The translations under genes and the position numbers were made by a program. From Candidatus Wirthbacteria bacterium (GTDB taxonomy: Bacteria; Patescibacteriota; CG2-30-54-11): a stretch of DNA of 64,000 nucleotides. Below, in pieces: positions 48,750 through 55,439 of the stretch. The stretch lies in NCBI GenBank assembly GCA_903889905.1, contig CAISZI010000047.1:80096-144095 (forward strand), in the 5' to 3' direction. Under the pieces are notes generated by a model. That model was not told where the DNA came from. It searched no databases and saw only the letters and a list, made by a program, of their open reading frames with translations. Numbering within the stretch: position 1 is the first letter of the stretch; every line of letters begins with the position of its first letter.

Positions 48750-51700
48750 TTATCCATTTGGCCTCTGTCCATCACCTGCTGAACGAATAACGGGAGCCGG
48801 TGGCGGCTGACCATCTCCAGGTGGGCGAATATCGGGAGGTGGCAGCTGACCATCGCCAGGTGGGCGAATCACCGGAGAACTACCGCCAACAGGCGTAGAC
48901 GGATGGTTAACAATGCTCTCAAACGGCGCAACTGACTGCAAAGTCTTGGGATCCTGGATATACCACGCCGCTTTGTCCGCTTTCCAGACTAACTGAAATT
49001 GCCACCGGGCACCGTCACGTACTGGAGAAAATTCGCGACCGGCACCCAGTGCAGTTGGCATGCCAAAACTAGGATTGTTAGCATCCTCGCGTAGCAAAAG
49101 CGTTGCTCCATCCTTGATATTACCCGTTCCAGAGTCAATGAATTCTGGCGGAACCGTGGTACGATCCGGGATACCCGAAAGTCGTCCGCCATTGACATCA
49201 AGCGACGCAACCGTCTGGCCGGCGTAGCCACCTTTGAGAATCGCTTCACCCAAATGGTGATTGTATCCCATGTCTACAGGTTTATGTGTGACAGGACTTT
49301 CCATCAGTTTAAAGAAGGCCACTTTCTCGTTTTCCACGAATTGGCCAGCATTCGCACATTTGTTGGCTGCAATTTCTAACACTGTTTCTACCTTACCATT
49401 CTGGCCAACTTTGGCTAGGACAGTAATGACATCGCCTTCCTTCCAGTTGGCATCTGACACAGAGAGACCACCTGCCTGGTCATAGGTAGCATTGTTGGCC
49501 ATCATCCCATGACGCGGAATCTCAAACCCGGGATAATGCTTTGAAAATTCACCAACAGTTAATGTTTCAAAGGAAAATTTAGTGTCCCCAGCATCGTCAA
49601 AGCGACCATTGCCATTCGTGTCCACTGCATAGAATTGTTTACCAGCGATCATCTCAAGCTTCTTAAAATTCCCATTGGCAATGGCTTCAATCATACCTGG
49701 CGCTTTGACACCCGCCGCCGCGCGGAACAACTCTGCCATATAAGCCCAGTCCTGACGGTCTCCAGCACTTGCCTGTGCAATGGTTTCAGGGGTACTGGCA
49801 TGATTCGCCGTAAATGTTCCCGGAGCTGTCTGCCCTTTGGGAAGGTTGCTCAAAACGGCTGTAGCTGCGGCTTTTTCCAGGATTGCTGGATGGTTTGCCG
49901 CTACGGCACTGATATCAACAGACTTTGTTGCAGCAGGTGCTGCCACGACAAGGGGTTCAACTCCCCTACCCACGTCAGCTTTCACAGATACACCCGTCAC
50001 CTCCACTAAATTGCTATTTAATATTATGGGGTCATTGGAAGAATTAAGACTTCGAGAAGGATCTCCAATATCATTGTGAGAAATCGTCAACGCACCGAAT
50101 TGCAATTCAATATTGCCATTGGGATAGATATGGATACAGGTAGGATCGAGGACAAACTTGTCACCCGGATAGACATTGCCTTCGACACGCTGGAACTGCG
50201 TGGTTAATGCGGCGGTCAAGGTATTGACATTCATGTCCTTGAATTCAGGAATATTTTTGACCAGGTCTTTGGCAATGTTGGAGGATTCAGACCAAAAGCT
50301 GTCACCCGGGTGCGCCGTAGATTCAAATGTCTGGAGACTAGACTTGTTCCCAGATGTAATTTGCACTCTTAATGAGTTATCAGCAATTGCCTGACTTAAC
50401 TGGGTATCATTTATCCCGGTACCGTTCGTATGTTTGACCATCACGGTGACTTTGGCAAAATCCACGATGACATGGCCGTCATTACCAACGGTGACGGCAT
50501 CATTAGCAATACTTAAACCAACCTTATCCCCAGCATTAACCGTAATTTTTTGATCAGTAGCCAATCTGACAAGCATGTTCGTCAATTCATCAAGCTGAGC
50601 TATTCGAAGATTCAATTTAGGAAGATCAGGGGTAGATTCATCAAGGAGCTTAGTAATGACATCTCTGATAGTCAGGGTCGCATCACCAGAAGCAGTTGTA
50701 TTGATCTCAATATAACTAAAAATTTTGTCAGGCGGCTGTTGCCCTGCCTGTTCGAAATGGTCAACCTTGATCGGAGAATTCAGCTTGCCGCCGCTGCTGC
50801 TGCGCGCGCGACTGGCCAAATCAGATATTGCTGTGTCGGTTATCGTCGCATGCTGAGCCACTGACTGCTCCACAACCACAGTTCCACTAGGATGGGTTGA
50901 GGTGCTGGCCTGCGCGGTTGCGATCAGGTGTTCGGCTCCGGCGACTACTTTGCCGGCGACAAAATTGGCGCCCATAGCGATTTCGGTCCTGATTCCCTGC
51001 ACCAGCGGTGTATTCATCACCAGGCTTCCGACGGTACGGCTGGCCGCAGTGGCGATACCGGTAATCCCGGCTTTAATCAGGACGTTTTGGAGTATGGACG
51101 AATTCATGCGCTTTTTGGCCTCACTGACATTGTCCTGTGCCGCTGGCATGGCCTCGGCAATTAAATCTCTGGCCGCCACGATAGCCTTGGCCTGATCAAC
51201 GGCTGAATCGCCTCGACGTAATTGATTGATCAATAAATTGCCAAAAAAGGATGCTTTGTCTTCAATGCCCATAATTTGGGCTTCGGCCACAAGTTGAGCC
51301 AATTTTAGCGGGGTTGTTCCGTCATTGTGATCCAAAGCACCGAAACGTTCATCCAAACGGCCGGCAAAAGCCATCTGTTCAATTTGCATGGCCTCTACGC
51401 CACCGGCATTCCCGGCAGTTCCGATCGACGCCACTGCGCGGGCTCCTGAGACCACTCCCCCCACTGCTCCCAGCGCAAAAGAACCGGACATGACAAGGTT
51501 TGATCCTCTCAGCCATTTTTCACTTTTAACGAATTCCATCACCTGTTTGACGCCATCGCTGCTGACAACTCTTTGGGCGATCGCCGCAACTTTGGCCACC
51601 AAGTCCTCTGGTTGAGAATCCTTTTTGTTGTCGGTGACTGCATGCCGCAACATTGTCAACATGACTGCTTCGGCACGCGCCCGGACCATTTTATCTACGT

Positions 51701-53162
51701 TCAGATTAGCGCCCTGCAACTTATCTGACATGCCGTTCATGATATCGGTCAATGCCGTGTTGTAAGCGATAATCAATCGCGGCAGCTGCTCGGCATTATC
51801 CAACCCAGCCCGTAAGTCATGGATGGCCGGCTGCAGTTTACGTTCGATGATTTTGTCGATCATCTTGGCGGCAGCGGCATTGGGGTCACGTTCAAAAGCG
51901 TCATGGGCCTCAGCAGCTTTGTTACGGTCAAGGTTGGTCGCCACGGCCAGCTGCGTGGACACGGTTTCAATACCGATCTTGCGACCGCTAAAGCTGACAC
52001 TTCGTGATGTCCCCATGACCGACGAGACACCGAAATTGAAATTCCGTAAATTCTGTTGAAAACGATCCTTGCTGAACATACCTCTCGGATCAAAGGCATT
52101 TTTGGTGCTGAAATCCGCGGGCACATAAGCCATGACATCTTTATTCGCAAAAAAGCCGGTCAAAGACCCGCCGTGCTGTAAATGCTGTTTCAAATCGGCA
52201 TGTGTTTCCACCATAGCCAGCAGCATCCCCACAAAGTCCAATCCGCCCATTTCCACGGTACGTTTATTGACCGTCATCTCGGCCATGTCAGCCTGACGCC
52301 CCATGATACGGCTGGCAAATTGCACCAGGCGGCTTTTGGGTTGATTACTCTCCACAAGCTCATCGTTGACCAAGGACTTCAGTTCGGCTTGCCATTTGCT
52401 GACCTGTTGCTGGGTGCGAACAGCGGCATCTGCGGCTATGGCCATTTCGACTTGATGTTTGGTGCCGGAATACGACACCATCCGGTCGTAGCGAAGCACA
52501 TCAAGCTTTCCCGCCAGGGTTGTCGCCTGAGGACGGTTTTGCTCGGCGAGTTGCTCTACCACTCTGGCAACATGTTTGCCCGTTTCGCCGATTTCGATTT
52601 CCTGTGCAGCATTTCTGGCACGTTCATCCAGGCGATCATAGGCTTCAAACCTGCGTCGTTCGGAACGAGGCCTCTTACTTTCGTGTGGAGCCTGATTTCC
52701 GTCCAGACCATCGGTATCAGCCGTGAGTGCTGTGTCGTTGATCATGATGTCCCGGCTGCGAATCTGGATACCTTGACGAGGATTTGGATCCAAATTGACA
52801 ACAAAAGTTGTCTCAACTTTAAAATTCCGTTCATGCCTGCTTTGCAAATAAGCAACCAACGCCAAAACTAGGGTTGTCTGGATCTCCTGTTCGGTTCCAG
52901 CTCTGTTCTGCCCGTGGACTTGATCCATGATTGCCTGCGTCAAGACCTCGGCAACGCGTTGCGGGCCGGCTTTTTCACGCAACCTATAGGGTACCTGCAT
53001 TTTTTGAGGTTCATATTCGAATATTTGCTTCCCAATAGATTCATCCCGCCTGCTTCCGCCCCCGACACCTGTGTACATTACCGGTAGGCTTCCCCTGCCG
53101 CGAATTTCGGGAAACACCATAGCCGAGGCGTCATATCTTGAAAGTGTCATATTTCCCACCAT
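48750..53162 (-). CDS. Large hypothetical protein: helical N-region, Gly/Ala hydrophobic segments, divergent LysM-like repeats and a Pro-rich C-terminal repeat
   Basis: 1470-aa ORF with no signal peptide; AHPGDSFWS...NVYPGDKFVL; IR(PP/SA)GDGQ three times. Confidence 0.8.
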   Translation of the reverse strand: MVGNMTLSRYDASAMVFPEIRGRGSLPVMYTGVGGGSRRDESIGKQIFEYEPQKMQVPYRLREKAGPQRVAEVLTQAIMDQVHGQNRAGTEQEIQTTLVLALVAYLQSRHERNFKVETTFVVNLDPNPRQGIQIRSRDIMINDTALTADTDGLDGNQAPHESKRPRSERRRFEAYDRLDERARNAAQEIEIGETGKHVARVVEQLAEQNRPQATTLAGKLDVLRYDRMVSYSGTKHQVEMAIAADAAVRTQQQVSKWQAELKSLVNDELVESNQPKSRLVQFASRIMGRQADMAEMTVNKRTVEMGGLDFVGMLLAMVETHADLKQHLQHGGSLTGFFANKDVMAYVPADFSTKNAFDPRGMFSKDRFQQNLRNFNFGVSSVMGTSRSVSFSGRKIGIETVSTQLAVATNLDRNKAAEAHDAFERDPNAAAAKMIDKIIERKLQPAIHDLRAGLDNAEQLPRLIIAYNTALTDIMNGMSDKLQGANLNVDKMVRARAEAVMLTMLRHAVTDNKKDSQPEDLVAKVAAIAQRVVSSDGVKQVMEFVKSEKWLRGSNLVMSGSFALGAVGGVVSGARAVASIGTAGNAGGVEAMQIEQMAFAGRLDERFGALDHNDGTTPLKLAQLVAEAQIMGIEDKASFFGNLLINQLRRGDSAVDQAKAIVAARDLIAEAMPAAQDNVSEAKKRMNSSILQNVLIKAGITGIATAASRTVGSLVMNTPLVQGIRTEIAMGANFVAGKVVAGAEHLIATAQASTSTHPSGTVVVEQSVAQHATITDTAISDLASRARSSSGGKLNSPIKVDHFEQAGQQPPDKIFSYIEINTTASGDATLTIRDVITKLLDESTPDLPKLNLRIAQLDELTNMLVRLATDQKITVNAGDKVGLSIANDAVTVGNDGHVIVDFAKVTVMVKHTNGTGINDTQLSQAIADNSLRVQITSGNKSSLQTFESTAHPGDSFWSESSNIAKDLVKNIPEFKDMNVNTLTAALTTQFQRVEGNVYPGDKFVLDPTCIHIYPNGNIELQFGALTISHNDIGDPSRSLNSSNDPIILNSNLVEVTGVSVKADVGRGVEPLVVAAPAATKSVDISAVAANHPAILEKAAATAVLSNLPKGQTAPGTFTANHASTPETIAQASAGDRQDWAYMAELFRAAAGVKAPGMIEAIANGNFKKLEMIAGKQFYAVDTNGNGRFDDAGDTKFSFETLTVGEFSKHYPGFEIPRHGMMANNATYDQAGGLSVSDANWKEGDVITVLAKVGQNGKVETVLEIAANKCANAGQFVENEKVAFFKLMESPVTHKPVDMGYNHHLGEAILKGGYAGQTVASLDVNGGRLSGIPDRTTVPPEFIDSGTGNIKDGATLLLREDANNPSFGMPTALGAGREFSPVRDGARWQFQLVWKADKAAWYIQDPKTLQSVAPFESIVNHPSTPVGGSSPVIRPPGDGQLPPPDIRPPGDGQPPPAPVIRSAGDGQRPNG

Positions 53163-53417: not shown

Positions 53418-53459
53418 TTTCTTCCCCTCTCCTAGTTTAGGAGAGGGCAGGGTGAGGTA
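53418..53459. repeat. REP-like palindrome (CCCTCTCCT...AGGAGAGGG type), copy 1
   Basis: 42-bp direct repeat of 54378-54419, differing only at 2 loop positions. Confidence 0.85.
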
Positions 53460-53479
53460 AGCCCCCTCCCCTTCCCATC

Positions 53480-53506
53480 AAAAAAAAAGTCCCCCCACGG
53501 GACTTT
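53480..53506 (-). terminator. Rho-independent terminator closing the structured transcript
   Basis: aaagtccc-gtggg-gggacttt followed by a T run on the minus strand. Confidence 0.75.
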
Positions 53507-53604
53507 AACGCAAAATCCAGTAAAGCCTGAGGAAACAGACGGGAGAAAAGAAACGGAGTGACAGGCAGGCTCAGGGAAGCCTCTGTCACTCCATAAACAC
53601 CTTT

Positions 53605-54138
53605 CTACCGCCACATAGCGGGCAGAAAGGTGTGACGGTCTGCTGCAGCGGGCAGTGAAAACTGCACGCTGTCTACCAGCTGACCATCAAGCTGGTAGAG
53701 CGCCAGGGTCAAGGTCAAACCCTGGCGCCAACTCCCCACTGCGAGAGCGTAGTGATCCTGGGGGAAAATCACTACGGACTGGGTGTACACGGCCCCGGAT
53801 GGGGTCGGTACGAATTGCTCCCAGTCGCTCTGGTCTGCGCCCGTGAGGGCTACCAGACCAGTCTCTGTCATTCTACCCCAACACCGTGGAGTGGTGTTGG
53901 GGCAACCGAACAAGGAAGCGGTGATGGTGTAAACCACCCCGCTCCGTATTTCGGTAGCGTATTGCCCATCGGGGGCCAATACGCCGAATGAAACTCCGCC
54001 GGTCGGGACCAAGGGTCCCTGGCTGGCGGAATTATTTTGCACCGGTCCCTGCACCAGTGCAAAAGCTGGGGTCACCCCCACCAGCAGGGTTGCCGTCGCG
54101 ACTATGGCCGCGACGGCACGAAAAAACTTTCCAAACAT
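53605..54138 (-). CDS. Secreted 177-aa hypothetical protein with a C-terminal HTFLPAMWR motif
   Basis: Strong SD aggaggt before ATG 54138; signal peptide ending AFA; visibly GC-richer than its flanks. Confidence 0.8.
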   Translation of the reverse strand: MFGKFFRAVAAIVATATLLVGVTPAFALVQGPVQNNSASQGPLVPTGGVSFGVLAPDGQYATEIRSGVVYTITASLFGCPNTTPRCWGRMTETGLVALTGADQSDWEQFVPTPSGAVYTQSVVIFPQDHYALAVGSWRQGLTLTLALYQLDGQLVDSVQFSLPAAADRHTFLPAMWR

Positions 54139-54685
54139 TTTAGCACCTCCTAGTGCTAAGGGGTTTGAGGTCCCCCTGCCACCCGTGGAACGCCCGCTAA
54201 CCAGGCTCCTTTTGTATTGCAACCCGACGAATTAATCTCGTTGCAAAACAAACCAGAAAGCCAGGAGCTTTCTAGTCCCTACCGCGCACGGTAGGATTGC
54301 TCACCCAACGGCACGGGTCGGCAGAAAAGAGAGAAGAGCACCTCCCCAACCCCTCCTAATCTAGGTGGGGCAATGCATTTCTTCCCCTCTCCTAAGTTAG
54401 GAGAGGGCAGGGTGAGGTATTTCCCCCCTTTCTGCCGCCCGCGACATTCGGCACCCGGCGCCGGACTATTCATGGCGGCATCTGATATTGTGTCTGTTTC
54501 CTCAGGCCATGAGCACCACCCATTCCACGTTAGCTGGCCGCCGCAATGGCGGCTGCTCACTGGAAGCGGTGACTCAAAGCCCAAGGGCTCTGAGATTTTT
54601 AAGGTACGCCGCTTCGATTGAAGCGGCAAAGGAAAGCCTTGGCATTGGACAAGACCTTCCGCTGCCACTTCGCAATTGGTTTTAG
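54139..54685 (-). ncRNA. Candidate large structured 5' leader or ncRNA of unknown family
   Basis: At least 8 stems, many with G-U pairs that work on the minus strand; no credible ORF; complementary to the 3' trailer at 53516-53540. Confidence 0.6.
54341..54419. repeat. REP-like inverted doublet, copy 2, at the apex of a long RNA stem
   Basis: cctccccaacccctcctaatctaggtgggg...cccctctcctaagttaggagagggcagggtgagg. Confidence 0.8.
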
Positions 54686-54690
54686 ATTCT

Positions 54691-54699
54691 ATTATAACA
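54691..54699 (-). promoter_or_regulatory. Extended -10 promoter
   Basis: TGTTATAAT on the minus strand, immediately upstream of the first stem. Confidence 0.6.
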
Positions 54700-54757: not shown

Positions 54758-55165
54758 CTATTCTTGCTTATTCACCGCAACAAATTCCGCTGGACTCAAA
54801 ATGCGGGTCTGCTTCCATTTGTGGATTGGTAACAGATGCTTTTTATCTCCAGTAATCAACCATGAGGCTCCACATGTTTCGCACAATGCCAGCAAATAGG
54901 CATCCGCCGGATCAGGATCAAAAACTACGGTTCGCTTTACGTTGTAAACACTTTCCTGGCCAACCCACTGCTTAAAAAACAAAATCGTGTCATCGTCAGC
55001 GGCAAATTTGGTGCGCAATTTACGGATAACTTCAATGATCAACTCTTCCGAAAAGCACCACTCCAGTCCGGCGTCCAAAATTGAGTTAATGGCCTCAAGT
55101 GGCGTACCACCAAACAGCAATGCCGACAGGAGGACATTCGTGTCCACCACCACTTTGTCAGGCAT
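54758..55165 (-). CDS. PIN-domain (VapC-like) toxin
   Basis: VVVDTNVLLSA, E, DPADAYLL and LITGDKKHLL. Overlaps the upstream gene's stop. Confidence 0.9.
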   Translation of the reverse strand: MPDKVVVDTNVLLSALLFGGTPLEAINSILDAGLEWCFSEELIIEVIRKLRTKFAADDDTILFFKQWVGQESVYNVKRTVVFDPDPADAYLLALCETCGASWLITGDKKHLLPIHKWKQTRILSPAEFVAVNKQE

Positions 55166-55439
55166 TTTTGACCATTTCATATAATTCGTCTTCGCTCAAT
55201 TTCGACTTTAACTGCCCCTGCGCCTGGAGCCACTTTTGCCCCAAAGCTTTGCTGGCACGCCGCAGGTCTTTCAATCCCTGTTTGCGGGCCAAGGTGTCGG
55301 TTTTGTTGGTAATCAATAATTTTTCTGACAAAACAACCTTGACGATTTCGGCCTGACTTAAGAGCGGATAGCGCTGCGACTTCAGCGTGGCCAGTGCTTC
55401 CCTGACTTCGGCGGTTAAGGTGATACGCAACTGCTGCAT
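55158..55439 (-). CDS. Putative antitoxin (RHH-like N-terminus)
   Basis: MQQLRITLT strand followed by helices; directly upstream of the PIN gene; SD aaggag. Confidence 0.75.
   Translation of the reverse strand: MQQLRITLTAEVREALATLKSQRYPLLSQAEIVKVVLSEKLLITNKTDTLARKQGLKDLRRASKALGQKWLQAQGQLKSKLSEDELYEMVKNA

Follow-up and report, generated by a model that had tools for sequence, protein, structure and literature searches.

A protein-coding RNA of Candidatus Wirthbacteria folded along its whole length, from an apparently undescribed class of bacterial mRNA

Type I toxin mRNAs, as described for aapA/IsoA of Helicobacter pylori, hok/Sok and ldr/Rdl, possess a promoter and a terminator of their own, a leader with structure, 5' and 3' ends that pair around the ORF, a folded ribosome site and a membrane-targeted product (PMC6733600, PMC8167048). 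The aapA3 mRNA comprises 225 nt with a 90-nt ORF; long-range pairing is reported to trap its Shine-Dalgarno (SD) sequence, and 3' trimming to activate it (PMC6733600). We have analyzed a locus with the general features of these mRNAs on the minus strand of a 64,000-nucleotide stretch of genomic DNA from a Candidatus Wirthbacteria bacterium (hereafter the window). In outline the locus is similar to a type I toxin mRNA; the tests applied here, however, do not place it among them. It is one of nine loci of the same build in the source genome, which apparently form an undescribed class of bacterial mRNA. Literature listings and abstract openings yielded no account of mRNAs of this kind from Patescibacteria, most subscription papers lying outside this coverage.

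The transcription unit of about 1.2 kb consists of an extended -10 promoter, a leader of about 545 nt, a 177-codon ORF (the cargo), a 125-nt trailer and a terminator. Sequence inspection and promoter scans located the promoter (TGnTATAAT, TGTTATAAT) at 54691-54699, and transcription would start near 54684. The leader opens with a 5' hairpin (54607-54671) for which there are two alternative lower stems, and here folds of nascent and full transcripts differ. According to minimum-energy folds, the next hairpin (54573-54594) would depend on prior formation of the closing helix; as long as the transcript is incomplete, the 5' strand of this hairpin is predicted to pair with 54500-54508 instead. A rod with a c(AUUGC)g pentaloop cap (54505-54575, loop 54543-54547), common to two other loci of the source genome, is followed by the 5' arm of the closing helix (54492-54507; 16 bp and a G-U pair 54508/53524), the 3' arm of which is located at 53525-53540. 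An inner multi-branched leader domain (54179-54480) holds a long rod and the hairpins 54278-54295 and 54253-54275. This rod of about 30 bp had been described in the original prediction and is present, but its tip (about 54334-54425) is an inserted pair of genome-wide G/C palindromic repeats, assigned to neither strand, with further copies in the source genome (G000) and in the related genomes G002 and G003. Another copy, likewise without strand, lies downstream, outside the transcript (53418-53466). The SD hairpin (54140-54159; AGGAGGT 54151-54145, AGGA in the loop) adjoins the ATG at 54138, and the cargo coding sequence (53605-54138) is folded throughout. A strong 3' hairpin (53555-53592) and a U-rich tract (53553-53545) follow, which could act as a leaky terminator ahead of the closing arm, and the unit ends with an intrinsic terminator (53480-53506, hairpin 53506-53486). 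Promoter, leader stems, SD hairpin, 3' hairpin and terminator were all found on the minus strand at the positions originally proposed. Directly upstream of the promoter, a PIN-domain toxin (TIGR00305) and a 93-aa partner encoded upstream of it (window 54758-55439, minus strand) likely constitute a type II toxin-antitoxin pair; a downstream ORF of 1470 aa (window 48750-53162, minus strand) showed no family match at cut-off.

Folding was stronger than expected by chance even when the palindromic repeat was removed: z-scores were -4.5 and -5.9 for the leader halves and -5.6 for the trailer, with none of 100 dinucleotide shuffles as stable for each part; the whole leader reached z -11. Furthermore, the cargo ORF, for which no structure had been proposed, was found to be a series of consecutive hairpins. 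Its coding sequence was more stable than all 25 synonymous-codon shuffles (z -8.5); control coding sequences averaged -0.24 (sd 1.37, n = 323), the two lowest of them being members of the class. When 19,858 windows of 120 nt were scanned, the locus came fifth among 520-nt stretches. Within the class, the sense strand outfolded the antisense strand in eight of nine loci, and G-U pairs were more numerous on the sense strand in eight of nine as well, which argues for selection on the RNA. In silico, sense-strand RNA structure is shown to be selected along the whole transcript; the structure is real, not a chance product, and larger than previously described.

The class was delineated from 15 structured runs, comprising the nine loci, four runs overlapping tRNA genes, one apparent repeat cluster and one run on contig C57. 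Eight loci owe their selection to structure, and their starts were chosen by SD sequences, so that both features are circular as class evidence. Three further features were outside the picking criteria. A hydrophobic segment is encoded in nine of nine cargoes as compared to 312 of 914 control ORFs. Perfect leader-trailer helices of at least 12 bp were found in five of the nine loci versus 14 of 1506 ORFs genome-wide (three of these being class members); the other four loci lack a long perfect helix. The motif TGnTA(A/T/C)AAT is present upstream of five loci (expected, 0.047 per 700 nt). Whether related loci carry different ORFs had been suggested as a check, and the nine cargoes are indeed unrelated to each other, with lengths of 46, 55, 61, 72, 92, 174, 177, 184 and 330 aa and coding-sequence z-scores between -4.0 and -11.4. 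Family scans of all nine yielded nothing at cut-off, and the three cargoes searched for relatives were orphans.

Two members adjoin each other (L023:626-1150 and L023:1414-1692; G000:C51:31225-32291, plus strand) on the contig where the tmRNA is located. The first encodes a 174-aa membrane-anchored protein and has a 13-bp closing helix; the second, which encodes a 92-aa three-helix membrane protein, has a trailer with a c(AUUGC)g hairpin. Hydrophobic products of 46-72 aa are encoded by L024:734-874, L025:624-809, L026:380-598 (minus strand) and L028:633-800, with closing helices of 14 bp in L025 and 12 bp in L026. L026 and L028 share a 16-nt sequence at the promoter as well as the pentaloop rod, their ORFs being unrelated. 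This promoter motif was not found in G001-G004 or in the genome contigs searched; of two viral matches, one was inspected and judged to be due to chance. L027:369-923 (minus strand) and L029:982-1974 encode a 184-aa lipobox protein and a 330-aa membrane protein, respectively, both from folded coding sequences, and the 16-nt closing arm of L029 competes with a local trailer hairpin repeating part of the 5' arm. Two structured stretches, G000:C40:183500-184100 and C57:4401-4820, are devoid of an SD-led ORF.

The window gave no match to any Rfam family at the gathering threshold; the best of eight weak matches had E 0.098, far below threshold, and the locus region gave none at E ≤ 10. The kinds of RNA weighed were RNase P, tmRNA, SRP, group I and II introns, ROOL, GOLLD, OLE and riboswitches. 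An undescribed RNA scaffold had been proposed, and a structured transcript does enclose a real cargo ORF; conservation of a non-coding scaffold between loci was, however, evident nowhere beyond a domain of about 65 nt in three of nine loci, this one included, namely the c(AUUGC)g-capped rod just before the closing arm. In this rod, both partners differ in seven of 15 pairs, and slid controls collapsed, in a comparison of three sequences from which the structure itself was derived. In 61 genomes, the rod model R1 recovered only its own three training sequences. Hairpins with c(AUUGC)g loops showed no enrichment across the genome (stems ≥ 6 in 6 of 396; 1.5% versus 0.9% for all loops), and the motif, noticed post hoc, occurs in four of nine loci. 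A second copy of the leader was not found in the source genome, and a search of 61 genomes with the leader DNA matched the palindromic repeat only.

The source genome (1.99 Mb, 97% complete) belongs to a lineage which we infer to be a basal class of Patescibacteria (CPR), and the bacterium is ultra-small and probably host-dependent. Ribosomal protein uL30, the absence of which is reported as a CPR trait (PMC9297842), is kept here (G000:C5:55747-55899) and in G002 and G004; it is missing in 36 of 36 sampled phylum-mates outside the class, with genomes of 0.5-1.5 Mb. Genes for histidine synthesis (C40:71442-75957), Lgt and LspA are also retained, unlike in typical CPR. A VirB4-like ATPase (G000:C1:3984-5792), followed by a 1032-aa ORF, adjoins recF-dnaN-dnaA, an arrangement reported for the type IV secretion systems of Patescibacteria, most of which are without relaxase (PMC12102498); their role is called completely unknown (PMC11665869). 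In the sister genus G002, of which 514 kb of about 1.4 Mb were scanned, one more class locus was found (L042:16745-16915, 56 aa, z -9.3). It is located in a region (L042:16480-17030, contig C11) with a promoter, a folded leader of about 260 nt, a strong SD sequence, a two-helix ORF and a terminator; no leader-trailer helix was seen, and G000, G001, G003 and G004 contained no relative. Neither the complete 786-kb genome of phylum-mate G007 nor 473 kb of the about 2.1 Mb of class-mate G004 revealed class loci. G007 does contain a 39-aa hydrophobic ORF with a strong SD sequence in a mildly structured region (L095:4121-4240) and a candidate structured intergenic RNA of about 200 nt behind promoter-like sequence (L094:7650-7850).

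The cargo of 177 aa has an N-terminal hydrophobic signal-like segment and the C-terminus HTFLPAMWR, that is, the (Y/F)LPxxxR motif at the extreme C-terminus by which Chloroflexota tail proteins were recognized. Genomes were searched with the codon pattern T(Y/F)LPxxxR-stop, and at least 120 stretches matched. Among the 80 listed, 31 were from Chloroflexota by title; among the matches listed, 31 end a long open frame, and 26 of these 31 are from Chloroflexota. A tail of the FLPxxxR type is a Chloroflexota hallmark; literature listings and abstract openings held no description of it. In the source genome, the strict tail terminates one of 1585 ORFs, the cargo itself, and a looser pattern three of 1585. 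For 24 Chloroflexota tail genes the folding z averaged -0.78 with a lowest value of -3.96; by the same measure, the cargo gave -6.8. A homologue search returned the cargo alone among 655 candidates, a comparison with 1.84 billion representative proteins gave a single match, a repeat protein, and viral contigs gave no homologue. Two metagenome matches were dropped because they fell in frames of unrelated genes. The structure model (pLDDT 45, best fold Z 5.4) was too poor for use. One Atlas search matched a cluster commonest in Chloroflexota with a score of 0.75, below the level that shuffled proteins often reach, and a second was blank. Since the tail is intact on a protein otherwise without relatives, it looks retained and foreign. 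The cargo may thus combine an intact export signal of host type with a protein body that is not recognisable, and its RNA would have gained extreme structure. A mis-binned Chloroflexota contig was considered and rejected, given the single tail protein in the genome, VirB4 beside dnaA and the uL30 pattern.

The explanation we favor, although held at somewhat less than even confidence, is that loci of this class give rise to mRNA parcels that are long-lived and free of ribosomes and that may be destined for a host's translation machinery. Such a self-contained mRNA would be built to persist without ribosomes; its folding would shield it from nucleases and keep translation low in the cell that makes it. 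By computation, the closing helix ties together the ends of the cargo domain, the ribosome site is strong although folded locally, and the cargo is targeted to the envelope; refolding of the 5' region could mark the finished RNA. The parcel might then go to an attached host, probably a member of the Chloroflexota, which is the least certain step, perhaps by way of the relaxase-poor type IV secretion system; host ribosomes would make the protein and host export machinery would place it in the host envelope. That Patescibacteria deliver sealed, nuclease-proof mRNAs for host-type membrane or surface proteins, with host ribosomes and export building the effectors, is a claim of its own that we regard as doubtful. 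Translation in a host cell had been a speculation of the original prediction; it gains one independent support from the Chloroflexota-type tail but remains speculative, and the tests that would force it were all negative. The source genome has an anti-SD sequence, S1, Lgt and LspA; nothing forces the cargo to be translated elsewhere, and the bacterium could make these proteins itself. The tested mark of a host lineage is present on one of nine cargoes; two others may have an Anaerolineae look. The tail could also have been left behind by gene transfer, or it could serve for binding at the surface of the maker itself. We know of no precedent for the transfer of mRNA from bacterium to bacterium for translation, nor was one found.

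With this machinery present, delivery is favored only slightly over storage in the bacterium's own cell, which is nearly as likely. The RNA would then be an mRNA kept for its maker, sealed through an unattached, non-dividing stage and translated by the maker's own ribosomes on attachment, its products being surface and membrane proteins, some borrowed from the host or mimicking it. All folding evidence fits storage equally well, the machinery for translation and for lipoproteins is at hand, and unattached, non-dividing swarmer cells have been described (PMC11665869). We nevertheless hold storage to be slightly less likely than delivery: no activating switch is predicted, core attachment genes should be conserved and yet the three cargoes searched are orphans, and a tail found on no other strict-match protein of the genome is left unexplained.

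Silencing of the hok or aapA type by the 5'-3' helix, as originally suggested, was not borne out. The 16-nt arms are 100% complementary and pair with a probability of 1.00 in the full-transcript model; an additional 9-nt extension (53516-53524 with 54556-54564) is complementary as proposed, but its pairing probability is 0.00, a local stem out-competing it. The proposed hairpin around the SD sequence is likewise present, but it leaves the AGGA core unpaired in the loop, only the flanks and the start codon being paired; the UCCU loop 54263-54266 is a possible kissing partner. The SD duplex amounts to -13.9 kcal/mol, and opening of the ribosome site costs 14.4 kcal/mol, or 13.7 kcal/mol once the 3' arm is taken away, in a secondary-structure model that does not include kissing loops. 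This reduction of 0.7 kcal/mol, and of at most 1.0 kcal/mol across ten loci, compares with drops of about 10 or more for mokB (from 16-17.5 to 3-7 kcal/mol) and of about 4-6 for ldrD (from about 16-18 to 11.7 kcal/mol), determined as positive controls by the same method. In the model, about 108 leader nucleotides change partners through the closing helix; hence, finished and unfinished transcripts would differ in 5' shape. We infer that the closing helix probably acts as a seal and not as a translation switch.

These results bear on the possibility that the loci are related to type I toxin-antitoxin systems, i.e. inert, stable toxin mRNAs closed from 5' to 3' and activated by trimming, with small RNAs that were not recognised here. 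Their outline is that of hok and aapA (PMC6733600), five of nine cargoes are hydrophobic proteins of 46-92 aa, and in six of nine loci the opening cost reaches or exceeds about the 90th percentile among 120 controls. Apart from the small effect of 3'-arm removal, however, consensus scans, which cannot exclude an antisense promoter, found none facing into the locus, and no convincing trans antitoxin RNA was found, the best match being 17 nt inside a coding sequence. Furthermore, four cargoes have 174-330 aa, this one with its signal-like segment, and the coding sequences of hokB and ldrD gave z-scores of only +0.2 and -2.9. We therefore consider this relationship improbable.

Slightly less probable still is that the loci are horizontally acquired genes undergoing domestication, their translation tuned down by accrued structure, with no special role of the RNA. 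The foreign-looking tail would fit, as would the occurrence of the loci as isolated insertions between unrelated neighbours with a GC content of 0.50-0.60 (genome ORFs, 0.50 ± 0.04). Consensus promoters and very strong SD sequences were kept, however, and structure over the whole coding sequence together with long-range helices goes far beyond any need for damping.

Mobilisation, also part of the original prediction, is very improbable, and so is a mobile element of RNA or single-stranded DNA of which the loci would be genomic copies and the 16-bp arms the ends: the arms are perfect inverted repeats and the dense short hairpins recall RNA replicons, but the five long closing arms have five different sequences, the sense strand is preferred, no reverse transcriptase was found in the 97% complete source genome (PF00078, 0 matches), and the locus matched nothing in phage, plasmid or viral collections. 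A MITE-like cargo transposon was rejected as well, terminal inverted repeats common to the copies being absent.

Manipulation of hosts by Patescibacteria and the cargo of their essential, mostly relaxase-free type IV secretion systems are open questions (PMC11665869, PMC12102498). If sealed mRNAs are indeed delivered into the host bacterium, mRNA would be an inter-bacterial effector and a candidate substrate of this system. Such loci can be detected from sequence alone by coding-sequence folding far beyond that of synonymous shuffles, so that the delivery idea is testable in cultured Saccharibacteria; if the RNAs are read in a host, foreign marks on their cargoes would predict which hosts uncultured lineages have. 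Should the RNAs never leave the maker cell, protein-coding RNAs folded from end to end would be a new class of bacterial mRNA and, as natural examples, a model for the design of stable mRNAs.

As compared to aapA3, this locus is far larger, with 1.2 kb and 177 aa; no gating is predicted, and consensus scans found no antitoxin. Its coding sequence (z -8.5) is folded as those of hokB and ldrD (+0.2 and -2.9) are not, and its product has one N-terminal hydrophobic segment, unlike the small hydrophobic type I toxins; hydrophobic products of 46-92 aa do, however, occur at five sister loci. Dense stems over several hundred nucleotides are also characteristic of the ROOL, GOLLD, OLE and HEARO RNAs, and GOLLD can enclose tRNAs; the cargo here, in contrast, is a protein gene, and little sequence is conserved between loci. 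Consecutive hairpins in coding sequences and start sites controlled by structure are known from the genomes of ssRNA phages such as MS2 and from viroid-like RNAs, whereas this locus is chromosomal, has a single ORF without replicase or coat gene, shows a sense-strand bias and was without match in phage or viral collections. With the Chloroflexota tail proteins, finally, the cargo shares a signal-like N-terminus and the location of the tail, at the extreme C-terminus; it differs from them in a body without sequence relatives and in an mRNA that, unlike theirs, is hyper-folded.
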